64,000 nt of DNA from Escherichia coli (GTDB lineage Bacteria > Pseudomonadota > Gammaproteobacteria > Enterobacterales > Enterobacteriaceae). The DNA lies in the NCBI RefSeq assembly GCF_044324875.1, contig NZ_CP172187.1; one strand, given 5' to 3'. The position numbers and the translations under genes are program-made. The first letter of the stretch is position 1. Each line of letters opens with the position of its first letter. Of this stretch, positions 994-56,500 are shown piece by piece. Under the pieces are notes generated by a model, which ran no database searches, had not been told where the DNA came from, and worked only from the letters and a program-made list of their open reading frames with translations.

Positions 994-1430
994 CAGCGTA
1001 ACTCCCGCGTCCTGTGTATCACGTGAGTGACAACACCAAAAATACAGATGTTTTCCGGATACAGTGTGCGGAACTCCGGGCTGTCTGAAACCGGCTCCAG
1101 TGCCGGGCGTGGGCGCAACAGCAGTCGTTTGACGGTGAACTCACCATCGATCTCAGCGATAACGATGTCCCCGTGTTGTGGTTTTTCGGCCCTGTCCACT
1201 ACCAGCAGATCACCATTCTGCACGCCAGCCTGGTTCATCGATTCACCGCTGGCGCGCAGAAAGAAGGTGGCTGCAGGTCTGCTGATGCAATAGCTGTTCA
1301 GATCCAGTTCCTGCTCAGCATAATCAGTGGCAGGCGAAGGAAAACCGGCCTGGCAACGATCGGCAAACAACGGTCGCACGTAACTGTCATTGCCTGAAGG
1401 GTCAGCCGGACGGTGATAAACGGTACTCAT
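993..1430 (-). CDS. impA: UmuD/MucA/ImpA-like SOS mutagenesis protein (LexA-type self-cleaving S24 peptidase fold)
   Basis: 145-aa ORF with the conserved segment FFLRASGESMNQAGVQNGDLLVVDR and a catalytic-Lys region typical of UmuD/LexA C-domains; sits between impC and impB. Confidence 0.85.
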   Translation of the reverse strand: MSTVYHRPADPSGNDSYVRPLFADRCQAGFPSPATDYAEQELDLNSYCISRPAATFFLRASGESMNQAGVQNGDLLVVDRAEKPQHGDIVIAEIDGEFTVKRLLLRPRPALEPVSDSPEFRTLYPENICIFGVVTHVIHRTRELR

Positions 1431-1675
1431 GCTGCAGGCAGCCAGCTGTCGTCCTGCCAGATTTCTTCCAGCAGAGACAGGATACGTTCTTTATCCTTGT
1501 CGTTGCGGGCTCCTGTGACAGATACAGACGGGGCGCTGCCCTGGTCTATACGCAGCCAGATTTCCGGGTAGTGTGGTTTCAGACGTCGTTCGATTTCATT
1601 CTGTAGCGCCTGAAGTGTGCCTGATTTGAGGTTTTTTGTGCTCTGGCGGTCGAAAAGAATTTCAATGCGGATCAT
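1427..1675 (-). CDS. impC: ImpC-like small protein, first gene of the impCAB operon
   Basis: ORF-track frame 1427..1735; chosen start is the internal ATG (MIRIEILFDRQ...) preceded by AAGGGAG, which leaves the LexA box outside the CDS. 4-nt overlap with impA. Confidence 0.7.
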   Translation of the reverse strand: MIRIEILFDRQSTKNLKSGTLQALQNEIERRLKPHYPEIWLRIDQGSAPSVSVTGARNDKDKERILSLLEEIWQDDSWLPAA

Positions 1676-1698
1676 GTTCTCATCTCCCTTTTCTTTTG

Positions 1699-1714
1699 CT
1701 GTATGTATATACAG
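1699..1714. promoter_or_regulatory. LexA (SOS) operator upstream of impC
   Basis: Perfect palindromic CTGTATGTATATACAG (CTGT-N8-ACAG) 24 nt upstream of the impC start. Confidence 0.65.
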
Positions 1715-1984
1715 TATTCTAATAACTGAATCCACACACAGTCAAATGTCATTATTGTGACTAAAAAACGCTCAATTCTCTGAGGGTGTGGCTGTATGCC
1801 TGCTGTGGACTGCTGTGTCCAGCTTATCCACAGCATTTTGCGCACGGTTCTGTGAATAAAATACCTGGTTACCCAGGCCGTGCCGGCACGTTAACCGGGC
1901 TGCATCCAATGCAAGTGTGTCGCTGTCGCCGGCATCCTCACCAGGTCACTCAGCAGTCAGGGAGAAAAATGGCGGATGAAGTAT

Positions 1985-2340
1985 GACGGAGACGGTCGGG
2001 CAAGTGCCCGTTTCTTTTCCGACAAAGGATGTCGCCGTGCTCCTCTTTTTACTGCGCCGGCTGACGCGGCGCGGCATAAACGCTGCCTGTGGTCAGTGTC
2101 CCGCGTCCGGCGGGCACGGGACGGGCGCTTTTACCGCTCCCGGCTGGCGTCGGTGACAGTGTACGCCAGCCCGTCGCCCTTTTCTGATGAACGCCCTTCA
2201 AGCCGCTTTCGCGGCATAGCCTTGCCGTCAAAAAGACGACGGCTGCGGTATTCCACGGTCGGCCTGACCCGTTACCGGACGCGGTGAACAGCCCACAGGC
2301 AGCGGGGAACGGGCACCACAGGGGGGCCCTCCCGGTGCTC
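1985..2340. repeat. Leading-region repeat family A, copy 1 (~350 bp, GC-rich, hairpin-rich); candidate Frpo/ssi-like single-strand promoter
   Basis: Near-identical to 3290-3650 (shown by near-identical translations of ORFs 1976..2287 and 3248..3592 and by direct reading); ends immediately upstream of the ATG at 2343. Confidence 0.8.
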
Positions 2341-2342
2341 CT

Positions 2343-3284
2343 GTGAGGAGAATTCCCATGCCAAACTGGTGCTCAAATCGTATGTATTTTTCTGGTGAAC
2401 CAGCACAGATCGCTGAGATTAAACGACTGGCCAGCGGTGCAGTCACACCGCTTTATCGCCGCGCCACAGATGAAGGTATTCAGCTGTTTCTGGCCGGTAG
2501 TGCCGGACTTCTGCAGACCACTGAAGATGTGCGGTTTGAACCATGCCCCGGACTGACGGCTGCCGGACGTGGTGTTGTATCGCCGGAGAATATCGCGTTC
2601 ACCCGCTGGCTGACACACCTGCAGAACGGTGTGCTACTGGATGAAAAAAACTGCCTGATGCTGCATGAACTCTGGCTGCAGAGTGGTACTGGCCAGCGTC
2701 GCTGGGAAGGATTACCGGATGAGGTCAGGGAAAGCATCACCGTGCATTTCACCGCCAAAAGAGGTAACTGGTGTGGCTTCTGGAGTAACGAGGATGTATC
2801 GGTGTGGTGGAACCGTCTGTGTGACAATGTACTGCCGGAAAAAACCATGCCGTTTGACCTGCTGACGGTTCTGCCCACCCGCCTGGATGTTGAAGTGAAT
2901 GGCTTTAACGGTGGTGTTCTGAACGGTGTTCCTTCTGCGTATCACTGGTATACGGAACAGTATGGCGTGAAGTGGCCTGTGGGGTATGAGGTGAATATCA
3001 GCAGTCAGGGAGACAACTTCATTCAGGTTGATTTCGACACGCCGTGGTGTCAGCCGGAAAGCGACGTTATTGCAGAATTAAGCCGCCGTTTCAGTTGCAC
3101 ACTGGAGCACTGGTATGCCGAGCAGGGCTGCAATTTCTGTGGCTGGCAGCGATATGAGCGTGGAGAGCTTGTTGATGTCCTGTGGGGGGAATTGGAATGG
3201 TCTTCCCCGACAGATGACGATGAGCTGCCGGAAGTCACCGGACCTGCGTGGATTGTCGACAAGGTGGCGCATTACGGTGGATGA
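2343..3284 (+). CDS. Hypothetical leading-region protein (313 aa; Cys/Trp-rich), function unknown
   Basis: Long ORF immediately downstream of repeat A copy 1; alternative start ATG at 2358 (MPNWCS...). No motif I can assign. Confidence 0.55.
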   Translation: MRRIPMPNWCSNRMYFSGEPAQIAEIKRLASGAVTPLYRRATDEGIQLFLAGSAGLLQTTEDVRFEPCPGLTAAGRGVVSPENIAFTRWLTHLQNGVLLDEKNCLMLHELWLQSGTGQRRWEGLPDEVRESITVHFTAKRGNWCGFWSNEDVSVWWNRLCDNVLPEKTMPFDLLTVLPTRLDVEVNGFNGGVLNGVPSAYHWYTEQYGVKWPVGYEVNISSQGDNFIQVDFDTPWCQPESDVIAELSRRFSCTLEHWYAEQGCNFCGWQRYERGELVDVLWGELEWSSPTDDDELPEVTGPAWIVDKVAHYGG

Positions 3285-3289
3285 ATTCT

Positions 3290-3650
3290 GACGGAGACGG
3301 GCGGGCAACCGCCCGTTTCTTTTCCGACAAAGGATGTCGCCGTGCTCCTCTTTTTACTGCGCCGGCTGACGCGGCGCGGCATAAACGCTGCCTGTGGTCA
3401 GTGTCCCGCGTCCGGCGGGCACGGGACGGGCGCTTTTACCGCTCCCGGCTGGCACCGGTGACAGTGTACGCCAGCCCGTCGCCCTTTTCTGATGAACGCC
3501 CTTCAAGCCGCTTTCGCGGCATAGCCTTGCCGTCAAAAAGACGACGGCTGCGGTATTCCACGGTCGGCCTGACCCGTTACCGGACGCGGTGAACAGCCCA
3601 CAGGCAGCGGGGAACGGGCACCACAGGGGTGCCCTCCCGGTGCCTTCTGT
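3290..3650. repeat. Leading-region repeat family A, copy 2
   Basis: Direct repeat of 1985-2340 with a few substitutions; ends at the RBS (AAGGAGG) of the methyltransferase gene at 3668. Confidence 0.8.
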
Positions 3651-3667
3651 AAGAGAAGGAGGCTTTT

Positions 3668-4351
3668 ATGTCCCGTTTTATCCTGGGTGACTGCGTGCGA
3701 GTTATGGCCACGTTTCCGGACAATGCTGTCGATTTCATCCTCACCGACCCGCCGTATCTCGTCGGTTTCCGTGACCGTTCCGGGCGCACCATTGCCGGTG
3801 ACGTTAACGATGACTGGTTGCAACCTGCCAGCAATGAGATGTACCGCGTACTCAAAAAAGACGCTCTGTTGGTCAGCTTCTACGGCTGGAACCGTATTGA
3901 CCGCTTTATGGCGGCCTGGAAACGCGCCGGATTCAGCGTGGCAGGGCACCTCGTGTTCACCAAAAACTACACATCCAAATCTGCGTATGTCGCGTACCGC
4001 CACGAATGCGCCTACATCCTGGCAAAAGGCCGTCCACGTCTGCCACAAAACCCGCTGCCGGACGTGCTGGGCTGGAAATATTCGGGCAATCGTCATCACC
4101 CGACGGAAAAGCCTGTTACCAGCCTGCAACCGCTGATTGAGAGCTTCACACACCCGAACGCAATTGTGCTGGACCCGTTTGCAGGCAGCGGCTCAACCTG
4201 CGTTGCCGCCCTCCAGTCCGGACGCCGGTATATCGGTATCGAGCTGCTTGAGCAGTATCACCGTGCCGGACAGCAACGACTGGCTGCCGTTCAACGGGCC
4301 ATGCAGCAGGGGGCCGCGAATGATGACTGGTTTATGCCGGAGGCTGCGTAA
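3668..4351 (+). CDS. Orphan DNA methyltransferase, beta-class (N6-adenine/N4-cytosine type; DPPY motif precedes the SAM-binding FAGSGST motif)
   Basis: 227-aa ORF with TDPPYLVGF near the N-terminus and DPFAGSGSTCVAA near the C-terminus; no adjacent restriction endonuclease gene. Confidence 0.85.
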   Translation: MSRFILGDCVRVMATFPDNAVDFILTDPPYLVGFRDRSGRTIAGDVNDDWLQPASNEMYRVLKKDALLVSFYGWNRIDRFMAAWKRAGFSVAGHLVFTKNYTSKSAYVAYRHECAYILAKGRPRLPQNPLPDVLGWKYSGNRHHPTEKPVTSLQPLIESFTHPNAIVLDPFAGSGSTCVAALQSGRRYIGIELLEQYHRAGQQRLAAVQRAMQQGAANDDWFMPEAA

Positions 4352-6024: not shown

Positions 6025-6450
6025 ATGCAATATGCGAAACCTGTCACTCTGAATGTTGAAGAGTGCGACCGTCTGTTTTTTCTGCCTTACCTGTTTGGCC
6101 AGGATTTTCTGTATGCCGAGGCATCTGTGTACGCGCTGGCGAAAAAAATGATGCCGGAATATGACGGCGGATTCTGGCACTTCATCCGCCTGCCGGACGG
6201 TGGCGGTTACATGATGCCGGATGGCGACCGTTTTCATCTGGTCAACGGTGAAAACTGGTTTGACCGTACGGTCAGCGCCGATGCCGCAGGCATCATTGTG
6301 ACTTCCCTTGTGATTAACCGTCAGTTGTGGCTGTACCACGACAGCGGTGATGCAGGACTGACTCACCTGTACAGGATGCGCGATGCGCAGTTGTGGAGCC
6401 ACATCGAATTTCACCCCGAATGCAATGCGATTTACGCGGCACTGGACTGA
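6025..6450 (+). CDS. klcA: KlcA/ArdB-family anti-restriction protein
   Basis: 141 aa with family hallmarks FLPYLFG...[16 protein letters not shown]...[11 protein letters not shown], matching my recollection of KlcA/YfjX-type proteins. Confidence 0.8.
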
Positions 6451-7107: not shown

Positions 7108-7295
7108 TACAGGGGCAGGCGGTGGAGGCCGCCTGTCAGCCCGCGCGAAAACCCCTGGCAGGCTGACGCCTGCCGGAAGGGAAGCGGGCCACGCTGGCGC
7201 GTCGCCCGTTACCCTTCCCGTCTGTGATGTGTCTGACTCAGGAGTGTTTCTTTCTTATGTTGCGGAACTGTTCCTGATGTTGTTGTTGTTCCTTT

Positions 7296-7895
7296 ATCTG
7301 CTGCTCTGATTCTGACTACTGCAGTGTTGTTCTGTCTGCCGGGCGCACCTTCGGCTCCCGGCTGCCTGGCGGCATCCGGTCGTCAGGCCCGACTCCGACA
7401 GGCAGCTGCTGGCGCACCTGCCAGTCTCCGCCGAACCCGCTGGCGCGGCTTCGGGCTGCCGCTACGGTCCGATGCGTGAAAACCCCGGGCTTGCAGCGAC
7501 CGTTCTGGTCGCGCCGCCTCTGTCGCGCCGTGGCCTGCGCTCCAGGCATCCCGGCAAAAAGACGCCGGGATGTAAGGCGCAACGCCGTTTCGCAAACCGC
7601 GCTTCACGTCGTTGCTGCGGGTCCCTGCTCATTGCCTGCCGGGTGCCACACACCCGTATGAGTCCCTGTCGCCGGGGGCATAGACAGCCACAACCTGCCG
7701 CACTGACTGTCCAGGGTAAATGAACAGCCCACAAAATTTTTTACCCAAAACCCGGTAAAAAATTTTGCGTTCTGCCCAGGACAGGTGCGTCAGGCCGTGG
7801 CAGTGATGCCCCTTGCGGCGAAGGTTCTCAAACGGGTGAAGTTCATACCACAGGGAATACAGCAGCAGGTTCCCGCGAAACGTCAAAACCGCGGC
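7296..7895. repeat. Leading-region repeat family B, copy 1 (~600 bp, GC-rich); candidate Frpo/ssi-like single-strand promoter
   Basis: Shares ...CTGATTCTGACTACTGCAGTGTTGTTCTGTCTGCCGGGCGCACCTTCGGCTCCCGGCTGCC... through ...CGCGGCTCCCGAAACTCAAC with copies at 10651-11280 and 18720-19340. Confidence 0.8.
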
Positions 7896-8148
7896 TCCCG
7901 AAACTCAACGGGTGATGTTCTTTAAAAATCAGGATTTATTTCAGGCTCCGGCAATACGCATTTATGTGTTCTGTCAGTCATCCGGCTGGCAGGTAATGAG
8001 AACGCAGGAACAGAAGGAGGAAAACACCGGAGAACGTCAGACGCAGATATGAAAAAAGCAGGCCGGGGAGGACCTGCTTAATCCACACCGCAAAAACTGT
8101 TCGAGCAGTTTCTGCGGTTCCATTCAACAGTCATAAGGAGTTTCATTT

Positions 8149-8379
8149 ATGACGGTAAGTATTGTTTCACCTTCCGCAGCGGCTGTAAAGCCCCGCCGTC
8201 ATCCCCGTTTCAGACGCGAAGACATCCCCGCGCCGGAAATTGACCCCGTGCTGAAAGCCTTCGGGCGACACATAGCCCGGAGTTTTCACCGGGGGCGTGG
8301 TGTACACATCCCCGCCATGAAAAACACGGCCTTCGGGCAGGTGCTCCGCACACTCGAACTGAAACGCGCTTTTAACTGA
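8149..8379 (+). CDS. Hypothetical small basic protein (76 aa)
   Basis: ORF downstream of repeat B copy 1 with RBS AGGAG. Confidence 0.4.
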   Translation: MTVSIVSPSAAAVKPRRHPRFRREDIPAPEIDPVLKAFGRHIARSFHRGRGVHIPAMKNTAFGQVLRTLELKRAFN

Positions 8380-8430
8380 TGAGGTGAGCCGCCCCGCGAG
8401 GGGCGGCAACAGATGGAAGGAGAACATTTT

Positions 8431-9792
8431 ATGACATTAGCAGCAATCACCATGACCGCCCCGGAAGCCGCCAACCCTGTGCAGATGTACCGCGCGACCT
8501 ACTCACCGGATGACAACAAACTGCGCCTGTATGCCGCGTCACGTCTTGACCCGGAGACGTATAAAAAAGTGCATGATGCCGGTTTTCGCTGGGCACCCAA
8601 ACAGGCGCTGTTTGTCGCGCCAGCCTGGACACCGGGCCGGGAAGACGTGCTCCTCTCACTTGCCGGAGAGATTGAGGATGAAGACAGCACGCTCGCTGAA
8701 CGTCAGGAAGCACGGGCGGAGCGGTTTACCGGATACAGCGGAAAGCGGGCCAGTGAATCCGCACAGGCACTTGATGAAGTGGAAAGACTGGCCGCGATGA
8801 TCCCGCCCGGTCAGCCCATTCTTGTGGGGCATCACAGCGAACGCCGCGCCCGTCGTGATGCGCAGCGTATTGAAAACGGCATGAAACGTGCCGTGATGCT
8901 CTTTGAGCGTGCGGAATACTGGGAGGAGCGGGCGCGGTCGGCACTGCTTCACGCGAAGTATAAAGAACGCCCGGACGTTCGCTGGCGTCGTATCAAAAAA
9001 ATCGAAGCGGATTTGCGCAAGGCTGAAAAGACCATCGCGCAGTCGCAGAAATATCTGACGATGTGGCGGGCTGAATCGCTGGATCTGAATATGGCAAAAC
9101 TCATCAGCAGTCATGACCATATCAGCGCCTGTTTCCCGCTGGACAGGTATCCGCGCCCGGCAGAAAAAAGCCAGTATGAAGGAAGTCGATCGTTATGGTC
9201 GGCCCTGGATGATGACATCATCACCACGGAGCAGGCCCGCGAAATTGCGATCCGCTGTCATGAACGGCAGATTCAGCATCAACAACGCTGGGTTAACCAC
9301 TATCATAACCGCCTGATCTATGAGCGTGCCATGCTGGACGAAAGCGGCGGCGTGGTTACCCGGACACAGGATTTTGAGCCGGGCGGACAGGTTTTCAGCC
9401 GGGGCGAGTGGCTGACCATCATCCGCGTGAACAAAAGCAACGGGGCGGTGAGTTCAGTCACAACGCCGAATTACAGTTTTCTCGGGTACAGCGGCACGAT
9501 GAAAGTGACACCCGATCGCATCACGGACTACAAAGCACCATCGGCAGAAGAGGCTGCCGTCGCCAGTCAGGCCGCGAAGCGTCCGCCGGTAGTCAACTAT
9601 CCGGGGGAAGGTTTCCGGGAAATGACAAAGGCGCAGTGGGCCGCCCTGCCCCGGGACTGTAAGGCCGTGCGCAGTGTGGCAGAGACAGAAGACCACGGGG
9701 CATACCGCTACCGCCGCACAATGGACAATAATTTCCGCCTGGTGAATGTGTATATCACTGACATGAAAATCACGGAAATCCCACAGAAATAA
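8431..9792 (+). CDS. Conserved hypothetical leading-region protein (~453 aa)
   Basis: ORF-track frame 8413..9792; ATG at 8431 follows AAGGAGAA. Charged and coiled-coil-like; no catalytic motif recognised. Confidence 0.55.
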   Translation: MTLAAITMTAPEAANPVQMYRATYSPDDNKLRLYAASRLDPETYKKVHDAGFRWAPKQALFVAPAWTPGREDVLLSLAGEIEDEDSTLAERQEARAERFTGYSGKRASESAQALDEVERLAAMIPPGQPILVGHHSERRARRDAQRIENGMKRAVMLFERAEYWEERARSALLHAKYKERPDVRWRRIKKIEADLRKAEKTIAQSQKYLTMWRAESLDLNMAKLISSHDHISACFPLDRYPRPAEKSQYEGSRSLWSALDDDIITTEQAREIAIRCHERQIQHQQRWVNHYHNRLIYERAMLDESGGVVTRTQDFEPGGQVFSRGEWLTIIRVNKSNGAVSSVTTPNYSFLGYSGTMKVTPDRITDYKAPSAEEAAVASQAAKRPPVVNYPGEGFREMTKAQWAALPRDCKAVRSVAETEDHGAYRYRRTMDNNFRLVNVYITDMKITEIPQK

Positions 9793-10402: not shown

Positions 10403-10581
10403 TGACACAGGGCTGGCGGGAGGATAAATGCCCGTCTGTCCGCGCCGGGAAAAGACCGCGCGCCGGTGGCGCTGAAAGGGGCCGCGCTCACGCGCCGCCC
10501 CTTTCATTACGCGGACGTTCTGATGGGGGCTTCTGTCTTTTCAGACCTGTCATTTGTCTGTTACTGATGATGTTGTTGTTC

Positions 10582-10647
10582 CTGCTACTGCTACTGCTAC
10601 TGCTACTGCTACTGCTACTGCTACTGCTACTGCTACTGCTACTGCTC
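10582..10647. repeat. Hexanucleotide tandem repeat (CTGCTA)x11
   Basis: Eleven perfect units counted directly at the 5' edge of repeat B copy 2; the equivalent position in copies 1 and 3 is not expanded. Confidence 0.9.
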
Positions 10648-10650
10648 TTC

Positions 10651-11280
10651 TTTTTCCTGCTGCTCTGATTCTGACTACTGCAGTGTTGTTCTGTCTGCCG
10701 GGCGCACCTTCGGCTCCCGGCTGCCTGGCGGCATCCGGTCGTCAGGCCCGACTCCGACAGGCAGCTGCTGGCGCACCTGCCAGTCTCCGCCGAACCCGCT
10801 GGCGCGGTTTCGGGCTGCCGCTACGGTCCGATGCGTGAAAACCCGGCTTGCAGCGACCGTTCCGGTCGCGCCGCCCCTGTCGCGCCGTGACCTGCGCTCC
10901 AGGCATCCCGGCAAAAAGACGCCGGGATGTAAGGCGCAACGCCGTTTCGCAAACCGCGCTTCACGTCGTTGCGGCGGGTCCCTGCCCGTTGTTGTGTCCG
11001 GTGCCATTCACCTGTTTAAGCCCCTGTCGCCGGGGGCTGATACAGCCACAACCTGCCGCACTGACTGTCCAGGGTAAATGAACAGCCCACAAAATTTTTT
11101 ACCCAAAACCCGGTAAAAAATTTTGCGTTCTGCCCAGGACAGGTGCGTCAGGCCGTGGCAGTGATGCCCCATGCGGCGAAGGTTCTCAAACAGGTGATGG
11201 TGAATACCGGAGGGAACAAAGAGCAGGTCCCCGCAAAACGTCAAAACCGCGGCTCCCGAAACTCAACAGATGATGGGGGC
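10651..11280. repeat. Leading-region repeat family B, copy 2, directly upstream of ssb
   Basis: Direct sequence identity with copies 1 and 3; the 3' end ...CGAAACTCAACAGATGATGGGGGCTGAAAAC is shared exactly with copy 3. Confidence 0.8.
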
Positions 11281-11308
11281 TGAAAACATCAACAGAAGGA
11301 GACACATC

Positions 11309-11347
11309 ATGGCAGTTCGTGGCATTAACAAGGTCATTCTTGTCGGT
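11309..11347 (+). CDS. ssb: Plasmid single-stranded DNA-binding protein, exon 1 (codons 1-13, MAVRGINKVILVG)
   Basis: ATG with RBS AAGGAG; the 13 codons are the canonical SSB N-terminus; the reading frame is interrupted by GTGCG at 11348. Confidence 0.8.
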
Positions 11348-11960: not shown

Positions 11961-13862
11961 ATGCTGCCTGATGAACTTGAGAAAAGATTAGATGGAATTG
12001 AGGATGCTTCAAAAAAAGGGTATCCAGTACGTAATCTATACAAAATTGCGTGTGAGCCCGGACTGTGGCTGCAAGCCTACGTGAATATACGGGCCAATGC
12101 AGGTGCACTGACTCAAGGTGTATCAACAGATACCATTGATGGCTTTTCTATCGAAAGAGCAGAGAAGCTGGCAAAAACATTGCGGAGTAGAGAATACGTA
12201 GCGAAACCTGTACGCAGAGTTCAGATCCCAAAAAAGGACGGAAAAACCAGACCGCTGGGGATTCCAGGTGGAGACGATAAACTGGCGCAAGAAGTAGCAA
12301 GAATTATTCTGGAAAGGGTTTATGAACCAGTATTCTCTGAACACTCTCATGGATTCAGACCAAAACGTTCGTGTGAAACTGCGCTCAGATCTATTCGTCC
12401 AGTCTGGAACGGAGTTAAATGGATCGTGGATGTTGATATCAAAGGTTTCTTTGACAATATCCCCCACAAACTATTGCTGAATACACTGGCAGAGAAAATT
12501 AAGGATAAGAATTTCCTGAAATTAATCGAACAGTGGCTGAAGGCAGGATATGTGGACAATTGGAAATACCATCGCTCATATTCTGGCACGCCACAAGGTG
12601 GGATAATTTCTCCCTTACTGGCAAATATATACCTCGACAAACTGGACCGTTTTGTAGAACAGAATTTAATTCCTGCATATACAAGCGGTACAAAACGAAG
12701 AGCGAATCCAGATATGAACAGGCTGGCCCATAAGATTCATAAACTACGAAAGAAAGTAGACGGTATGGCAACTGATTCTGAATCAGAAAAAGAAGCCATA
12801 AAGAAAGAAATTGAACGACTGCTTGAAGAAAAACGTTCTATACCATCTCAGGTCATGAACGATCCAAACTTCAGGCGTATGTACTATGTTCGATATGCTG
12901 ATGACTTCGTAATCGGTGTCATCGGCTCGAAGAAAGATGCTGAACATATATCAAGACAGGTCAGAAACTTTATTACTACTTCACTGGGATTGGAAGTTAA
13001 TGAAGCAAAGACCAGGATCCGCCATATCTCAGAAGGAGTTAATTTTTTAGGCTATGAAATCAGACAGGCAGATGCAAAGAAATTGCTGAAGCAGAAAATG
13101 CAAGGGCGGCACGCTCTCCGGAGATCCACCACAGGAATTGTGCAGCTCTTCGTTCCTGACAATATAGCCGCTAAATTTTGTCACCAAAAGAAATATGGCT
13201 GTTATGAGAATGTGAAGGCTGTACATCGTTCAAGTCTACAAAATCTCAGTGAAGCTGAAATTGTTCTGACTTTCAACGCGGAAATGCGCGGATTGGCGAA
13301 CTACTACAGTCTGGCGCTGGACATGAAATATAAATTATCAAAATTATATTTCATATGGCAAATAAGCCTTTTTAAGACCCTGGCGAATAAACGACGTAGT
13401 TCAGTGAATAAAGTCGCCAAATCGCTACGGCAAAATAATGGAGATCTGGCTATTACCGTTCAGGCCAAAAATGGATCCCGAAAGATTGAGGTTTTCAAAC
13501 TCAAACATGTCAATCGCAACCGAACAACGATTGTCGATACGGAACCGAGAACCGCACATATCACAACCCGCACAACAGAGATCATGCGTCGATTAGGGGC
13601 AAGGATCTGCGAGTATTGTGCGAAGACTGGGCGCTGCGAAGTACATCATGTCAGAAAGCTAAAAGACCTGAAGAAAGGTCGTAAGGCCGGATATAAACCC
13701 AGCTTGTGGCAACTAATGATGATCGCACGCCGCCGGAAAACGATGATTTTGTGCGCAAGTTGCCACGACAAGTTACATAGCGGAAAACTACCCGATTTGA
13801 GACAGGAAAAGGGAAGAATACTCCTGCAACCACCTGTCTCAAGCGGGGATTCTGCTAAATGA
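11961..13862 (+). CDS. Group II intron-encoded protein: reverse transcriptase, maturase (X) and HNH endonuclease domains
   Basis: 633 aa with RT motifs (LGIPGGDDKLAQE, SHGFRPKRSCETAL, FFDNIPH, GTPQGGIISPLLANIYL, YVRYADDFVIGV) and a C-terminal Cys/His HNH-like cluster (CEYCAKTGRCEVHHV...CASCHDKLH). Confidence 0.9.
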   Translation: MLPDELEKRLDGIEDASKKGYPVRNLYKIACEPGLWLQAYVNIRANAGALTQGVSTDTIDGFSIERAEKLAKTLRSREYVAKPVRRVQIPKKDGKTRPLGIPGGDDKLAQEVARIILERVYEPVFSEHSHGFRPKRSCETALRSIRPVWNGVKWIVDVDIKGFFDNIPHKLLLNTLAEKIKDKNFLKLIEQWLKAGYVDNWKYHRSYSGTPQGGIISPLLANIYLDKLDRFVEQNLIPAYTSGTKRRANPDMNRLAHKIHKLRKKVDGMATDSESEKEAIKKEIERLLEEKRSIPSQVMNDPNFRRMYYVRYADDFVIGVIGSKKDAEHISRQVRNFITTSLGLEVNEAKTRIRHISEGVNFLGYEIRQADAKKLLKQKMQGRHALRRSTTGIVQLFVPDNIAAKFCHQKKYGCYENVKAVHRSSLQNLSEAEIVLTFNAEMRGLANYYSLALDMKYKLSKLYFIWQISLFKTLANKRRSSVNKVAKSLRQNNGDLAITVQAKNGSRKIEVFKLKHVNRNRTTIVDTEPRTAHITTRTTEIMRRLGARICEYCAKTGRCEVHHVRKLKDLKKGRKAGYKPSLWQLMMIARRRKTMILCASCHDKLHSGKLPDLRQEKGRILLQPPVSSGDSAK

Positions 13863-13888
13863 GTTTATCCCCAATAAGCTAGCAATGG

Positions 13889-13926
13889 AGAGCCGTATGC
13901 ACTGAAAGGTGCACGTACGGTTCGGA
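13889..13926 (+). ncRNA. Group II intron domain V (catalytic hairpin)
   Basis: Matches the conserved domain V consensus as I recall it (GAGCCGUAUGC...GCACGUACGGUUC), about 80 nt from the 3' splice site. Confidence 0.7.
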
Positions 13927-14008
13927 GGGGGGGTAACGGTGATCTAACTCAAGATAAGCAGGACATATTCGCCATTTATCTTGAAAGACCACACGTACCC
14001 TACCCTAC

Positions 14009-14497
14009 CGTCTGGGAAAAGATCCGGAAGTCCGTTACATCCCAAACGGGGGCGCAGTGGCAAACCTGCAGGTGGCCACGTCAGAAAGCTGGCGCGACAA
14101 ACAGACGGGGGAGATACGGGAGCAGACAGAATGGCATCGCGTGGTGCTGTTCGGCAAGCTCGCGGAAGTGGCTGGTGAGTATCTGCGCAAGGGCGCGCAG
14201 GTCTACATCGAAGGTCAGCTTCGCACCCGTAGCTGGGAGGATAACGGTATCACCCGTTACGTCACCGAAATTCTTGTTAAGACCACGGGCACCATGCAGA
14301 TGCTGGGACGTGCCGCAGGTACTCAGACTCAGCCGGAAGAGGCGCAACAGTTCAGCGGTCAGCCTCAGCCGGAATCACAGCCGGAACCGAAAAAAGGAGG
14401 CGCGAAAACGAAAGGCCGTGGACGTAAGGCCGCGCAGCCGGAGCCTCAGCAGCCGTCTGAACCCGCGTATGACTTCGATGACGACATTCCGTTCTAA
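14009..14497 (+). CDS. ssb: Plasmid single-stranded DNA-binding protein, exon 2
   Basis: In frame with ORF 14057..14497 ([19 protein letters not shown]...DDDIPF, acidic SSB tail); upstream in-frame codons [17 protein letters not shown] continue the SSB OB-fold. Confidence 0.8.
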
Positions 14498-18719: not shown

Positions 18720-19340
18720 TCCTGCTCTGATTCTGACTACTGCAGTGTTGTCCTGTCTGCCGGCGCACCTTCGGCTCCCGGCTGCCTGGCGGCATCCGGT
18801 CGTCAGGCCCGACTCCGACAGGCAGCTGCTGGCGCACCTGCCAGTCTCCGCCGAACCCGCTGGCGCGGTTTCGGGCTGTCGCTACGGTCCGATGCGTGAA
18901 AACCCCGGGCTTGCAGCGACCGTTCCGGTCGCGCCGCCTCTGTCGCGCCGTGGCCTGCGCTCCTGGCATCCCGGCAAAAAGACGCCGGGATGTAAGGCGC
19001 AACGCCGTTTCGCAAACCGCGCTTCACGTCGTTGCTGCGGGTCCCTGCCCGTTGTTGTGTCCGGTGCCATTCACCTGTTTAAGCCCCTGTCGCCGGGGGC
19101 TGATACAGCCACAACCTGCCGCACTGACTGTCCAGGGTAAATGAACAGCCCACAAAATTTTTTACCCAAAACCCGGTAAAAAATTTTGCGTTCTGCCCAG
19201 GACAGGTGCGTCAGGCCGTGGCAGTGATGCCCCATGCGGCGAAGGTTCTCAAACAGGTGATGGTGAATACCGGAGGGAACAAAGAGCAGGTCCCCGCAAA
19301 ACGTCAAAACCGCGGCTCCCGAAACTCAACAGATGATGGG
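18720..19340. repeat. Leading-region repeat family B, copy 3
   Basis: Direct identity with copies 1 and 2; ends about 30 nt upstream of the ATG at 19371. Confidence 0.8.
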
Positions 19341-19370
19341 GGCTGAAAACCAGAGAGAGGAGAAAGCTGG

Positions 19371-51347: not shown

Positions 51348-53546
51348 ATGAGTTTTAACGCAAAGGATATGACCCAGGGCGGTCAGATTGCGTCCATGCG
51401 TATCCGCATGTTCAGCCAGATCGCCAATATCATGCTTTACTGCCTGTTTATTTTTTTCTGGATACTCGTTGGTCTGGTTTTATGGGTAAAAATAAGCTGG
51501 CAGACGTTTGTGAACGGCTGTATTTACTGGTGGTGTACCACGCTGGAAGGCATGCGGGATTTAATCAAGTCCCAGCCAGTATATGAGATTCAGTATTACG
51601 GCAAAACCTTCCGGATGAACGCTGCCCAGGTACTGCATGATAAATATATGATCTGGTGCGGTGAGCAGCTATGGTCCGCATTCGTTCTGGCGTCTGTCGT
51701 GGCCCTGGTTATTTGCCTGATCACCTTCTTTGTTGTCTCCTGGATTCTGGGGCGTCAGGGTAAACAACAGAGCGAAAATGAAGTCACAGGTGGTCGTCAG
51801 CTGACAGACAATCCGAAAGACGTTGCCCGGATGCTGAAAAAAGACGGCAAGGACTCCGATATCCGGATTGGCGACCTGCCGATTATCCGGGATTCCGAAA
51901 TCCAGAACTTCTGTCTGCACGGCACGGTCGGGGCCGGTAAGTCGGAGGTTATCCGTCGTCTGGCCAACTACGCCCGTCAGCGCGGTGATATGGTGGTGAT
52001 TTATGACCGTTCAGGGGAATTTGTTAAAAGTTACTATGATCCCTCCATCGATAAAATCCTGAATCCGCTGGATGCCCGCTGTGCCGCATGGGATTTGTGG
52101 AAGGAGTGCCTGACACAGCCGGATTTTGATAATACCGCAAATACTCTGATCCCTATGGGTACAAAAGAGGACCCGTTCTGGCAGGGTTCAGGACGTACCA
52201 TTTTTGCGGAAGCGGCGTACCTGATGCGTAATGACCCCAACCGCAGCTACAGCAAACTGGTGGACACACTGCTTTCCATCAAAATTGAAAAACTGCGTAC
52301 CTTCCTGCGTAATTCACCGGCAGCCAACCTGGTGGAAGAGAAAATTGAGAAAACGGCGATTTCCATCCGTGCTGTGCTGACCAACTACGTGAAAGCCATC
52401 CGTTACCTGCAGGGGATTGAGCATAACGGTGAGTCTTTTACCATCCGTGACTGGATGCGTGGTGTCCGGGAAGATCAGAAAAACGGCTGGCTGTTTATCT
52501 CGTCGAATGCCGACACCCATGCCTCCCTGAAGCCGGTGATCTCCATGTGGCTGTCCATTGCCATTCGTGGTCTGCTGGCAATGGGAGAAAACCGTAACCG
52601 TCGTGTGTGGTTTTTCTGTGACGAGTTACCCACGTTACACAAACTGCCGGACCTGGTGGAGATCCTGCCGGAAGCCCGTAAGTTCGGAGGCTGTTATGTG
52701 TTTGGTATCCAGTCCTATGCCCAGCTGGAAGATATCTACGGTGAGAAAGCGGCGGCCACGCTGTTTGACGTCATGAACACCCGTGCTTTTTTCCGTTCCC
52801 CGAGCCATAAGATTGCAGAGTTCGCTGCCGGTGAGATTGGTGAGAAAGAGCACCTGAAAGCCAGCGAGCAGTATTCCTACGGTGCTGACCCGGTACGTGA
52901 CGGGGTATCGACCGGTAAGGATATGGAGCGTCAGACACTGGTCAGTTATTCCGACATTCAGTCTCTGCCGGATCTGACCTGCTATGTCACTCTGCCCGGA
53001 CCGTATCCGGCAGTAAAACTCTCCCTGAAATATCAGGCACGACCGAAGGTCGCTCCGGAGTTTATTCCGCGTGACATCAACCCGGAAATGGAGAACCGTC
53101 TGAGTGCCGTACTTGCTGCAAGGGAAGCAGAAGGTCGCCAGATGGCCAGCCTCTTCGAACCGGAGGTTGCCTCCGGAGAAGGCGTGACTCAGGCTGAACA
53201 GCCACAACAGCCACAACAGCCACAACAGCCACAACAGCCACAACAGCCACAACAGCCACAACAGCCAGTGTCTTCTGTCATGAATGATAAGAAGTCAGAT
53301 GCAGGTGTGAGTGTTCCGGCAGGGGGGATCGAGCAGGAGCTGAAAATGAAACCGGAAGAAGAGATGGAACAGCAACTGCCACCCGGGATCAGTGAATCCG
53401 GTGAAGTGGTGGATATGGCCGCTTATGAGGCATGGCAACAGGAAAATCATCCGGACATCCAGCAGCAGATGCAGCGTCGTGAAGAGGTGAACATTAATGT
53501 GCACCGGGAGCGCGGGGAGGATGTTGAGCCGGGAGATGATTTCTGA
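51348..53546 (+). CDS. traD: TraD, type IV coupling protein
   Basis: ORF-track frame 51168..53546; true start [22 protein letters not shown] at 51348; Walker A GTVGAGKS; matches F TraD from memory. Confidence 0.95.
53199..53261 (+). repeat. 9-bp tandem repeat (CAGCCACAA)x7 encoding the TraD C-terminal (QQP)n tract
   Basis: Counted directly in the sequence. Confidence 0.9.
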
Positions 53547-56500
53547 TGTTGAGTTTTAGCGTTGTTAAATCGGCAGGCAGTGCCGGAAACTATTACACCG
53601 ACAAGGATAATTACTATGTGCTGGGTAGCATGGGAGAACGCTGGGCCGGTCAGGGGGCTGAACAGCTTGGGCTGCAGGGCAGCGTCGATAAGGATGTTTT
53701 TACCCGTCTTCTGGAGGGCAGGCTGCCGGACGGGGCGGATTTAAGCCGCATGCAGGATGGCAGTAATAAGCATCGTCCCGGCTACGACCTGACCTTCTCC
53801 GCCCCCAAAAGTGTCTCCATGATGGCCATGCTCGGGGGGGATAAACGTCTTATTGATGCACATAACCAGGCTGTGGATTTTGCTGTCCGTCAGGTGGAGG
53901 CGCTGGCTTCCACACGGGTGATGACGGACGGACAGTCAGAAACGGTGCTGACCGGTAATCTGGTGATGGCACTGTTTAACCATGACACCAGTCGCGATCA
54001 GGACCCACAGTTACACACGCATGTGGTGGTGGCTAATGTCACGCAGCATAACGGCGAGTGGAAGACACTGAGCAGTGACAAAGTGGGGAAAACCGGATTT
54101 TCCGAGAACGTGCTCGCGAACCGGATTGCGTTCGGGAAAATATATCAGAGTGAGTTACGTCAGCGCGTTGAGGCGCTGGGTTATGAAACCGAAGTGGTCG
54201 GTAAGCACGGTATGTGGGAGATGCCGGGCGTACCGGTGGAGGCCTTTTCCGGACGCTCACAGGCTATCCGGGAGGCCGTCGGGGAAGATGCCTCGCTGAA
54301 ATCCCGGGATGTGGCGGCACTGGATACGCGAAAATCCAAACAGCACGTCGATCCGGAAATCAGAATGGCTGAATGGATGCAGACGCTGAAGGAAACCGGG
54401 TTCGACATCCGGGCATATCGTGACGCGGCGGATCAGCGTGCGGAGACCCGCACGCAGGCGCCCGGGGCTGTTTCACAGGAGGGGCCGGATGTGCAGCAGG
54501 CGGTGACACAGGCCATTGCCGGATTAAGTGAACGAAAAGTGCAGTTCACGTATACGGACGTGCTGGCCAGGACGGTCGGCATACTGCCGCCGGAAAATGG
54601 TGTGATTGAACGGGCACGCGCCGGTATCGATGAGGCCATCAGCCGTGAGCAGCTTGTCCCCCTCGATCGTGAGAAGGGGCTGTTCACGTCCGGGATTCAT
54701 GTGCTCGATGAGCTGTCAGTCCGGGCACTCAGTCGTGACATCATGAAACAGAACCGGGTGACCGTACATCCGGAGAAAAGTGTCCCCCGGACGGCCGGTT
54801 ACAGCGATGCCGTCAGTGTTCTGGCACAGGATCGCCCGTCGCTGGCCATTGTGTCCGGGCAGGGCGGTGCAGCCGGGCAGCGTGAGCGGGTGGCTGAACT
54901 GGTCATGATGGCCCGGGAGCAGGGGCGGGAGGTGCAGATTATCGCTGCTGACCGTCGCTCGCAGATGAACCTGAAGCAGGATGAACGGCTGTCCGGTGAG
55001 CTGATAACCGGACGTCGTCAGCTGCAGGAGGGCATGGTCTTCACGCCGGGCAGTACCGTTATCGTTGACCAGGGCGAAAAACTCTCCCTGAAAGAGACGT
55101 TAACCCTGCTGGACGGTGCCGCACGTCATAACGTACAGGTCCTGATAACCGACAGCGGGCAGCGAACCGGTACAGGCAGTGCGCTGATGGCCATGAAGGA
55201 TGCCGGGGTGAACACGTATCGCTGGCAGGGCGGAGAACAGCGACCGGCCACCATCATCAGTGAACCGGACCGGAATGTCCGCTATGACCGGCTGGCCGGA
55301 GATTTTGCGGCCAGCGTGAAAGCCGGAGAAGAGAGCGTGGCACAGGTCAGCGGGGTACGGGAACAGGCCATACTGACACAGGCCATTCGCAGTGAGCTGA
55401 AAACACAGGGCGTGCTCGGACACCCGGAGGTGACCATGACCGCCCTGTCACCGGTCTGGCTGGACAGCCGGAGCCGTTATCTGCGGGATATGTACCGACC
55501 GGGGATGGTGATGGAGCAGTGGAACCCGGAGACACGCAGTCATGACCGCTATGTTATCGACCGGGTGACGGCGCAGAGTCACAGCCTGACCCTGCGGGAT
55601 GCGCAGGGCGAAACGCAGGTGGTGCGTATTTCCTCCCTGGACAGCAGCTGGTCGCTGTTCCGGCCGGAAAAAATGCCGGTGGCAGACGGCGAGCGACTGA
55701 GGGTGACAGGGAAAATTCCCGGACTCCGCGTCTCCGGCGGTGACCGCCTGCAGGTGGCATCCGTCAGTGAAGATGCGATGACGGTTGTTGTGCCGGGGCG
55801 GGCTGAACCGGCCACCCTGCCTGTGGCTGATTCACCGTTCACGGCACTGAAGCTGGAGAACGGCTGGGTGGAAACGCCCGGGCATTCCGTCAGCGACAGT
55901 GCGAAGGTTTTTGCCTCCGTCACACAGATGGCAATGGACAACGCCACCCTGAACGGTCTGGCCCGCAGTGGTCGTGATGTCCGGCTGTATTCTTCACTGG
56001 ATGAAACCCGTACTGCGGAAAAACTTGCCCGCCATCCCTCCTTTACGGTGGTTTCTGAGCAGATAAAGGCGCGTGCCGGTGAGACATTGCTGGAAACCGC
56101 TATCAGTCTGCAGAAAGCCGGGCTTCACACGCCGGCACAGCAGGCTATTCATCTGGCCCTTCCTGTGCTGGAAAGTAAAAACCTGGCCTTCAGCATGGTG
56201 GACCTGCTGACAGAGGCGAAGTCGTTTGCTGCAGAAGGAACCAGTTTTACTGAACTGGGAGGGGAAATCAATGCGCAGATAAAACGCGGTGATTTACTGT
56301 ATGTGGATGTGGCAAAAGGCTATGGCACAGGCCTGCTGGTTTCCCGTGCGTCGTATGAGGCAGAAAAGAGCATTCTTCGCCATATTCTCGAAGGTAAGGA
56401 GGCGGTCACGCCGCTGATGGAGAGAGTACCTGGCGAACTCATGGAGAAACTGACATCAGGACAGCGTGCCGCCACCCGCATGATACTGGAAACGTCCGAC

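Follow-up and report, generated by a model that had tools for sequence, protein, structure and literature searches.

A Putative Second Class-3 Single-Stranded DNA Promoter Upstream of a DUF1281/YubB-Family Gene in a Plasmid of Escherichia coli

We have analyzed a stretch of 64,000 nucleotides (nt) of Escherichia coli DNA (contig NZ_CP172187.1 of assembly GCF_044324875.1; called the window in the following), with the focus on a gene of the DUF1281/YubB family located at positions 2358..3284 of the + strand. As judged from the sequence, this gene is the oriT-distal end of a ~19-kb leading region of an IncF-type plasmid, and in this lineage it is a predicted monocistronic unit behind a single-stranded DNA (ssDNA) promoter. 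A class-3 ssDNA-promoter hairpin, which is normally found only 5′ of the M.EcoGIX-type methylase gene, has been duplicated to a position just upstream of DUF1281, and the gene is in this plasmid probably expressed transiently on entry. On the basis of genomic association and protein properties, the product is most likely a conditional establishment/anti-restriction factor that works together with the neighboring ssDNA methylase. The family has been catalogued before (DUF1281/YubB/YfdA/YfaB/Hp8), with one homologue of solved structure, and the only new element is the minority promoter-duplication arrangement, which is not a new system.

Results and Discussion

The Duplicated Promoter Element

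The gene is flanked by two repeats, at 1971-2352 and 3276-3657, which are 97% identical, confirming the repeat-A element that the original prediction, made from the letters of the window, had assigned to it. The repeats contain two copies of a class-3 ssDNA-promoter hairpin, both on the − strand, which is the folding, transferred strand. Copy 1, assigned by homology and folding, occupies 1985..2335, 5′ of DUF1281, and copy 2, assigned by homology to plasmid pESBL, occupies 3290..3640, in the canonical place 5′ of the methylase gene. Both copies fold as ssDNA into a large stem-loop, the calculated energy for copy 1 being −105 kcal/mol, with z values of −5.8 and −4.8 for the + and − strands, respectively. 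The long basal stem of copy 1 is formed by a distal arm at 2081..2110 and a proximal arm at 2275..2304, which pair with each other (inverted repeat I2, the proximal arm being seen also in the folds), while an inverted-repeat search places the stem of copy 2 at 3386-3415/3580-3609 (inverted repeat I4).

Copy 1 is ~96.6% identical to the element 5′ of M.EcoGIX in pESBL, and copy 2, which fills the entire intergenic space 5′ of the methylase gene, is 97.6% identical to the element between Hp8, the pESBL orthologue of DUF1281, and M.EcoGIX. The M.EcoGIX hairpin of pESBL was identified by Wen et al. 2025 (PMC12672017) as an ssDNA promoter of "class 3", with a transcription start site determined by 5′ rapid amplification of cDNA ends, and the genes behind it are induced up to hundreds-fold in fresh transconjugants. 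Copy 1 shares with copy 2, the orthologue of the pESBL element, the orientation, the large stem-loop in the transferred strand, and a similar distance to the start codon; pESBL carries one class-3 element, whereas the window plasmid carries two. The class-3 promoter is reportedly related in function to the Frpo/ssi promoters of class 1 on which Masai and Arai worked in 1997. A promoter scan of the + strand predicts no double-stranded DNA σ70 promoter upstream of DUF1281. From the homology, we infer that copy 1 acts as an ssDNA promoter, and DUF1281 is apparently the only gene behind it, which supports the earlier proposal that it is the first gene behind a single-strand promoter.

The arrangement of the gene, the hairpin, and the methylase is also found in two Citrobacter loci (C. 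freundii and C. werkmanii, at ~7350-7650 of the respective stretches), where a 72-78% identical class-3 homologue lies 5′ of an N6/N4 methylase gene and downstream of a DUF1281 gene whose protein is ~45% identical to that of the window. The DUF1281-hairpin-methylase layout is therefore older than the E. coli plasmid clade. In the basal stem of the Citrobacter element, pairing is kept through three adjacent compensatory double substitutions. The corresponding covariation test, which gives modest evidence since it covers six sequences from two clades, finds 95.5% of the cells paired, compared to 34-44% with slid partners, and nine double-change cells, a number reached by 0/500 shuffles.

Each copy starts with a terminator-like hairpin followed by a T-run, located on the + strand at 1997..2020, at the 5′ edge of copy 1 (terminator scan), and at ~3302-3325 in copy 2, 18 nt past the DUF1281 stop (alignment of the copies). 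In this lineage, DUF1281 therefore stands on its own, with the predicted ssDNA promoter before it and a terminator-like hairpin after it, followed by the second ssDNA promoter and the methylase. At the left junction of the duplication, the 16-nt relic ATGGCGGATGAAGTAT (1969..1984, + strand) is identical to the last codons, the stop, and the spacer of a pESBL-type DUF1281 gene. Because this relic stands at its left edge, copy 1 must have been copied from a junction between the 3′ end of DUF1281 and a class-3 element.

The arrangement is rare. Copy 1 is absent at this position in F and pESBL, and of the at least 5000 plasmids that match a query spanning the junction into copy 1, only 68 cover it, among them the IncK2/Z (MPF_I) plasmids p135-2 (NZ_CP080262) and p1_020022 as well as the present IncF-type backbone. 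While the window and these ~68 plasmids carry the duplicated class-3 element, the gene in F and pESBL is preceded by a different segment of ~100 nt, which together with a conserved block forms a different hairpin of ~165 nt (z = −5.7). The block, which alignment, folds, and sequence show to be conserved upstream of DUF1281 in F, pESBL, and the window, spans 1790..1955, and its counterpart in F and pESBL provides the left arm of the ~165-nt hairpin, directly 5′ of DUF1281. This hairpin is not among the six described ssDNA promoters. The block also contains a perfect DnaA box, TTATCCACA, at 1824-1832, lying partly inside a small hairpin (CTGTGGA at 1803-1809 with TCCACAG at 1827-1833).

Two open reading frames on the + strand, 1976-2287 (103 amino acids) and 3248-3592 (114 amino acids), are reported inside the two hairpin copies. 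Their counterparts in p135-2, pESBL, and F are annotated by PGAP as "hypothetical protein" and have no Pfam match, and they are probably annotation artefacts of a GC-rich palindromic element.

The Gene and Its Distribution

The open reading frame originally predicted at 2343-3284 (+ strand) is present and gives 313 amino acids if read from GTG 2343, but the start has to be corrected. The GTG overlaps a Shine-Dalgarno sequence, GAGGAG at 2345..2350 (+ strand), read from the sequence in a segment conserved in F, pESBL, and p135-2, and would be an unlikely five-codon extension, while ATG 2358 begins 7 nt downstream of GAGGAG. All DUF1281 homologues start with MPNWC, Met1 being kept in 98% of 58 diverse sequences, and Hp8 is annotated as 308 amino acids. 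Because of the spacing, the start of the homologues, and the pESBL annotation, the start is placed at ATG 2358, and the true product is almost certainly a protein of 308 amino acids (MPNWCSNR...AHYGG, 2358..3284 with the stop included). Its 9 Cys (2.9%) and 16 Trp (5.2%) bear out the earlier description as Cys/Trp-rich. That the frame is open by chance is countered by the Pfam match (E = 1.2e-47) and by a ratio of nonsynonymous to synonymous substitution rates (dN/dS) of 0.19 relative to the pESBL orthologue, which indicate an intact gene under purifying selection.

DNA at least 90% identical to the gene occurs in more than 5000 PLSDB plasmids, and among 5426 complete E. coli genomes, 3099 carry the gene, 4075 of its 4124 places being on plasmids. 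It is known elsewhere as YubB/YfdA (F), YfaB (R64), and Hp8 (pESBL), with 92-96% DNA identity to the window gene, the same place upstream of an M.EcoGIX-type methylase gene, and the same orientation. In Suppl. Table 1 of Samuel et al. 2024 (PMC11541004), it appears as leading-region-enriched family 27, "Uncharacterized; DUF1281", with 1949 members and the aliases YubB, YccB, YfdA, YfaB, and YafB.

Decayed alleles are common. In the classic F plasmid (NC_002483), DUF1281 is frameshifted into frames of 183 and 145 amino acids (2856-3781 of the stretch), the "YfdA" of the databases being the C-terminal fragment of this frameshifted gene, and many plasmids carry truncations, internal deletions, or fusions to psiB, the methylase gene, or finO. 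The most populous 90%-identity clusters found are nevertheless intact proteins of 308 amino acids. In transposon insertion sequencing (TnSeq) of pESBL in K-12 matings, Hp8 (53471-54397) scores 0.00 for maintenance, 0.00 for transfer, and 1.00 as non-essential; the last of these scores is shared by M.EcoGIX, for which a phenotype appears only with restriction-proficient recipients (PMC4288162). Fraikin et al. 2026 used yfdA solely as a parS insertion site.

Fold and Conservation of the Protein

The protein matches Pfam DUF1281 (PF06924) with E = 1.2e-47 and 162.2 bits against a cut-off of 27.3, over profile positions 1-177 of 177, and DUF1281_C (PF18406, "ferredoxin-like domain in Api92-like protein") with E = 7.9e-16 and 58.2 bits against a cut-off of 22.8. 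NCBIfam and PADLOC give no match for it, and the PHROGs matches are to families of unknown function only. The search of the PDB finds 2IJR, the "hypothetical protein Api92" of Yersinia pseudotuberculosis, with E = 9e-49. An AlphaFold2 model built with 39 homologues as input (predicted local distance difference test score, pLDDT, 95.8; predicted template modeling score, pTM, 0.90) has a strand at 4-12, a helical domain at 15-201, and a strand-strand-helix-strand-strand-strand unit at 210-277, and is similar in three dimensions to 2IJR. The modeled fold is Api92-like (SCOP e.66.1). The protein would consist of two domains, namely, a ferredoxin-like sheet made up of the N-terminal strand (MPNWCxN) and the C-terminal 100 residues (FDTPWxPP, YxExG), and a helical domain of ~190 residues inserted between these two parts of the sheet.

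Api92, encoded in the adhesion pathogenicity island of Y. pseudotuberculosis, contains DUF1281 and DUF1281_C like the window protein, while lacking Pro2, Trp230, Cys261, and the conserved ...H[YF]GG C-terminus that the window protein has. Its gene is chromosomal, in an island or integrative and conjugative element (ICE), whereas that of the window is on a plasmid. Since Api92 is itself without an assigned function, the comparison gives the fold and not a mechanism. A structure search with the model returned no functionally informative and no enzyme-like neighbor, and no significant sequence or structural similarity to the bacterial STING-like cyclic-dinucleotide binding domain was found. In BFVD, the structural relatives come exclusively from phages and giant viruses and are uncharacterised "YubB ferredoxin-like" proteins, and the YubB-type domain has also been reported in polinton-like viruses. 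The original statement of an unknown function is borne out, remote homology and structure prediction leading to the uncharacterised Api92-like family and no functional study being found under any alias.

An exhaustive search yields 680 cluster representatives at E ≤1e-3. Full-length homologues reach down to ~26% identity, and a contig search based on a 12-sequence alignment finds homologues in genera including Pantoea, Erwinia, Citrobacter, Cedecea, Shewanella, Proteus, and Providencia. The signature motifs MPNWCxNR, EINGFNG, DFDTPWxPP, and HxYxExG..CGY are all present and are 70-96% conserved among 58 homologues sharing ≤70% identity, in which ~18 polar residues are ≥70% conserved. The window protein has an isoelectric point (pI) of 4.62 and a net charge of −20, most members of the family lying between −11 and −33. 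A conserved C-terminus, ...GPxYIxxNxxH[YF]GG-COOH (encoded at 3264-3281), ends exactly at Gly-Gly in 25 of 39 full-length homologues, down to 28% identity.

In viral contigs of IMG/VR, the pattern MPNWC[ASC]N matched at least 600 stretches, and dozens of short relatives (117-230 amino acids) start with MPNWC[SA]N and end with the ferredoxin-like domain FDTxWxPP...YxExG. These short phage and giant-virus forms, which have no helical domain, keep FD[TS]xWxPP and YxExG, and in 35 of them F[DE][TS]xWxPP, Tyr253, Glu255, Gly257, and Gly262 are nearly invariant. The N-terminal motif, with Cys5 and Asn7, was the search pattern for this viral set, and its conservation there is partly due to ascertainment and not assessable. 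A "core-only" chimeric query for short natural forms yielded nothing but fragments of the plasmid gene and alleles of it with internal deletions. The proteins form an uncharacterised superfamily common to plasmids, ICEs, phages, and giant viruses.

Going by the ferredoxin-like strand order, Cys5, Asn7, Asp227, Thr228, and Glu255, which are conserved throughout the superfamily, would come together along one edge of the sheet, where they might form an active site or a pocket for binding. Several specific activities were considered and dropped. A tautomerase-like catalysis dependent on Pro1 was rejected on the grounds that Pro2 is only 75% conserved and absent in Api92, and an HUH-nuclease-like HxY motif because position 253 can be either Tyr or Phe and the viral relatives have lost His251. 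A ubiquitin-like role of the C-terminal Gly-Gly was discarded, as the tail is predicted to be ordered and the fold is not a β-grasp, and as neither the Api92 clade nor most of the short viral forms have the motif.

Proposed Function

The T-strand, which is the − strand of the window, is taken as the template for DUF1281 because the gene has the same orientation as ssb, psiB, and klcA. According to the mechanism we propose, the T-strand would enter the recipient, the hairpin would recruit the host RNA polymerase, and DUF1281 would be made transiently until complementary-strand synthesis erases the hairpin. The protein would act alongside the ssDNA methylase, KlcA/ArdB, ArdC, and ArdA as a conditional establishment/anti-restriction factor, and it would bind and neutralize a host nuclease or defense protein through a conserved pocket composed of Cys5, Asn7, Asp227, Thr228, Trp230, and Glu255. 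Such stoichiometric inhibition of a host protein is the explanation we tentatively favor, with a likelihood falling a little short of even.

The assignment to establishment or anti-restriction is suggested by the genomic niche, the dispensability in restriction-free matings shared with M.EcoGIX, the decay balanced by purifying selection, and the acidity of the protein. The niche was examined by counting the Pfam matches of all open reading frames within ±4 kb of 17 divergent loci, as raw counts with no background frequency. The counts are 7 for DNA methylases, 6 for KlcA/ArdB, 3-4 for ArdC, 6 for UmuD-like proteins (Peptidase_S24), 5 for UmuC-like proteins (IMS), 3 for DUF1380, and 4 for integrases, with single cases of SSB, RecT, YqaJ, PsiA, DUF932, DUF4942, and Hok. 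Among seven loci of distant homologues, two have the gene directly downstream of ArdC (one of them also with ArdA), two have it near N6 methylases, one, from a marine source, has it between SSB-RecT and YqaJ, and two have it among small unknown genes arrayed in one direction, as is typical of establishment regions. The anti-defense islands of Samuel et al. 2024 (PMC11541004) are the same kind of neighborhood. ArdA, KlcA/ArdB, and ArdC share the niche and orientation of DUF1281 and are frequently its direct neighbors; the protein is acidic like ArdA and phage Ocr, and like the anti-restriction proteins it is dispensable in restriction-free laboratory matings. It differs from ArdA, KlcA/ArdB, ArdC, and Ocr in that it conserves specific polar residues and not an acidic surface pattern alone.

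A number of observations weigh against this interpretation. The functional category is guilt by association, drawn from raw neighbor counts. Full-text literature searches with every alias, Api92/2IJR, PF06924, and PF18406 found no functional study of the family, and searches of Pfam, PADLOC, and structures found no sequence or structural similarity to known anti-defense proteins (ArdA, ArdB/KlcA, ArdC, Ocr, Acr, etc.). No −35/−10 pair scoring ≥8/12 with a spacer of 15-19 nt was found on either strand of the hairpin, and the promoter call for copy 1 therefore rests on the homology to the pESBL element. The class-3 promoter of F and pESBL is located downstream of the gene, and the text of the two reports (Wen 2025, PMC12672017; Fraikin 2026) does not name Hp8/YfdA among the six induced operons of pESBL or the four of F, so that early expression may be peculiar to the ~68 plasmids with the duplication. 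Finally, the ~18 conserved polar residues and the superfamily-wide Cys/Asp/Glu cluster seen in the alignments would suit an enzyme as well as a binder.

An enzyme in place of a stoichiometric inhibitor is an alternative that we consider rather unlikely. Its site would be made up of Cys5 and Asn7 (strand 1), Asp227 and Thr228 (end of strand 3), Glu255 (end of strand 4), Trp4, and Trp230, and it would act, by hydrolysis or modification, on some universal substrate (for example, a host protein, a DNA modification, or an immune signal derived from nucleotides), still serving the establishment of the plasmid or virus. Besides the conserved polar residues, the persistence of C5, N7, FD[TS]xWxPP, and YxExG in relatives of 117-230 amino acids that lack the helical domain is consistent with this, and the breadth of the family (plasmids, ICEs, phages, Mimiviridae, and polinton-like viruses) suggests a universal substrate and not one bacterial defense protein. 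However, the conservation of His251 and Cys261 is confined to the full-length subfamily, the N-terminal part of the viral conservation is subject to the ascertainment mentioned above, and the clustering of the residues is derived from the strand order. In the earlier reading, a conserved Cys/His/Trp spacing in four motifs (NWCS, NWCGFW, CQPESD, and CNFCGWQ) pointed to a metal-binding or nucleic-acid-binding fold. The part of that reading concerning Cys5 (NWCS), Cys261 (the second Cys of CNFCGWQ), and His251 stands, these being kept in 34, 32, and 33 of the 39 full-length homologues, respectively; together with Cys247 (27/39) they make up four residues that are 69-87% conserved in this subfamily and that, going by the strand order, would sit on neighboring strands. 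The part concerning Cys139 (NWCGFW, 3/39), Cys231 (CQPESD, 2/39), and Cys258 (the first Cys of CNFCGWQ, 15/39, i.e., 38%) does not, as these three of the six Cys are lineage-specific, the first two being essentially unique to this clade. Moreover, Api92 has an Arg at position 261, its clade being without Cys261, and positions 247, 251, and 261 are mostly hydrophobic in the 35 short viral relatives. No set of 3-4 Cys/His ligands conserved across the family was found, only Cys5 being superfamily-wide, and with Cys247, His251, and Cys261 lost in the viral relatives, a Cys/His metal site is not a family feature. The strong acidity of the protein and of its family makes direct binding to nucleic acids unlikely, and the protein probably does not bind DNA itself. 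The proposed metal- or nucleic-acid-binding fold is accordingly not supported, and a protein of this type is very improbable.

Two further explanations do without counter-defense. A DNA-transaction accessory factor would aid the conversion of single- to double-stranded DNA, recombinational repair, or translesion synthesis, e.g., by binding SSB, RecA, UmuD′2C, or polymerases. Mimicry of ssDNA and docking on DNA-binding proteins are common among acidic proteins, the marine homologue lies between SSB-RecT and YqaJ, and the gene is repeatedly found beside umuDC/impAB-type operons (Peptidase_S24 in 6/17 and IMS in 5/17 loci, in addition to the window). This adjacency is not obligatory, however, because F has sopAB at that place, and the umuDC operon is on the opposite strand, outside the T-strand regulon. 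In addition, complementary-strand synthesis needs no plasmid-encoded protein and the conversion is insensitive to rifampicin (Fraikin 2026), while Hp8 is dispensable for transfer by TnSeq (PMC4288162), and we regard such a factor as improbable. The view that DUF1281 hitch-hikes or decays and at present does nothing for the plasmid would account for the frameshift in classic F, the many truncated, fused, or internally deleted alleles, the replacement of the gene by an IS110-like element in pTB-nb3, the closest backbone, and the TnSeq dispensability. It is at odds with the dN/dS of 0.19, the full-length homologues kept down to ~26% identity in many genera, the intact 308-residue proteins in the most populous clusters found, and the gain of a dedicated promoter copy in this lineage, and is hardly credible.

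Returning to counter-defense, two extensions can be mentioned. As a speculation, DUF1281 could be a companion of the promiscuous ssDNA methylase M.EcoGIX against methylation-dependent (Type IV, Mrr-like) restriction, an idea that derives from the finding that M.EcoGIX-modified DNA is restricted 10- to 10,000-fold by Mrr (Fomenkov 2020, PMC7736820). More generally, DUF1281/YubB might be the plasmid member of a large, unrecognized counter-defense superfamily (MPNWCxN...FDTxWxPP...YxExG) of plasmids, ICEs, phages, and giant and polinton-like viruses, acting by an undescribed mechanism, either enzymatic or that of a ligand sponge, with a split ferredoxin-like domain as its basis, and perhaps partnering M.EcoGIX in IncF/I/K plasmids, which we consider unlikely. 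Within such a superfamily, the promoter duplication would be an adaptive step that brings DUF1281 into the zygotic regulon.

Other Features of the Leading Region

The gene adjoins, on its left, a divergent operon of the impC/impA/impB-type for SOS mutagenesis, with a promoter-like site at 1745..1716 (− strand, promoter scan). The genes, all on the − strand, are impC (DinI-like, first of the operon; 1427..1735, Pfam DinI and p135-2 annotation), impA (UmuD-like, Peptidase_S24; 993-1430, Pfam and p135-2 annotation), and impB, a Y-family polymerase gene that runs from ~993 off the start of the window (p135-2 annotation). On its right, co-oriented with it, are the next transcription unit with the orphan N6/N4 DNA methylase gene (3668..4351, + strand; PF01555, 4.4e-39), DUF1380 genes, and a KlcA-type antirestriction gene (6025-6450). 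The methylase is a homologue of M.EcoGIX, YfeA(F), and YfbB(R64), and is syntenic with pESBL M.EcoGIX at 54782-55465. Further to the right, past an insertion, an F-like ssb/ParB-like/psiB/psiA block is followed by a traM homologue at ~21.9 kb, up to which the leading region is co-linear and co-oriented with those of F and pESBL. The position that had been given for the gene, at the far end of the leading region next to an SOS mutagenesis operon, agrees with these neighbors.

The closest backbone is that of pTB-nb3 (NZ_CP033634), an IncFIA plasmid of the MPF_F type, in which an IS110-like element, ISShdy1, stands in place of DUF1281 at 2947-3963, between class-3 copy 1 and the methylase gene. 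Just 5′ of the klcA-like gene of the window lies a 32-nt inverted repeat (5751-5782/5957-5988, 91% complementary, arms 174 nt apart), at the position of the class-2 ssDNA promoter (ssp2), which is described as a replication roadblock resolved by UvrD (Fraikin et al. 2026). The window also contains three Frpo/class-1-like elements, at 7480-7908, 10839-11337, and 18900-19350, which match both Frpo regions of F (8175-8672 and 13563-14012 of the NC_002483 stretch), and therefore has more ssDNA-promoter copies than F. The first two lie in a direct duplication of ~3.36 kb (7284-7917 vs 10643-11275), and CTG/CTA-rich repeats with a 12-nt period are found beside the duplicated segments, at 10558-10680 and 7268-7315.

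Conclusions

The finding presented here is that of a catalogued gene with a minor regulatory twist. More than half of the complete E. coli genomes carry the DUF1281 gene on a plasmid, where it sits in the region of resistance plasmids that decides the success of transfer. Its neighbors in the leading region, i.e., the ssDNA methylase, KlcA, ArdA/ArdC, PsiB, SSB, and HerB, have each proved to be establishment or anti-defense factors. Being both prevalent and uncharacterised, DUF1281 is a good candidate for experiments, and the natural variant of the window, a self-contained cassette with a copy of a validated type of ssDNA promoter and a terminator-like hairpin shortly past the stop, would be a convenient one for probing its role in plasmid entry.

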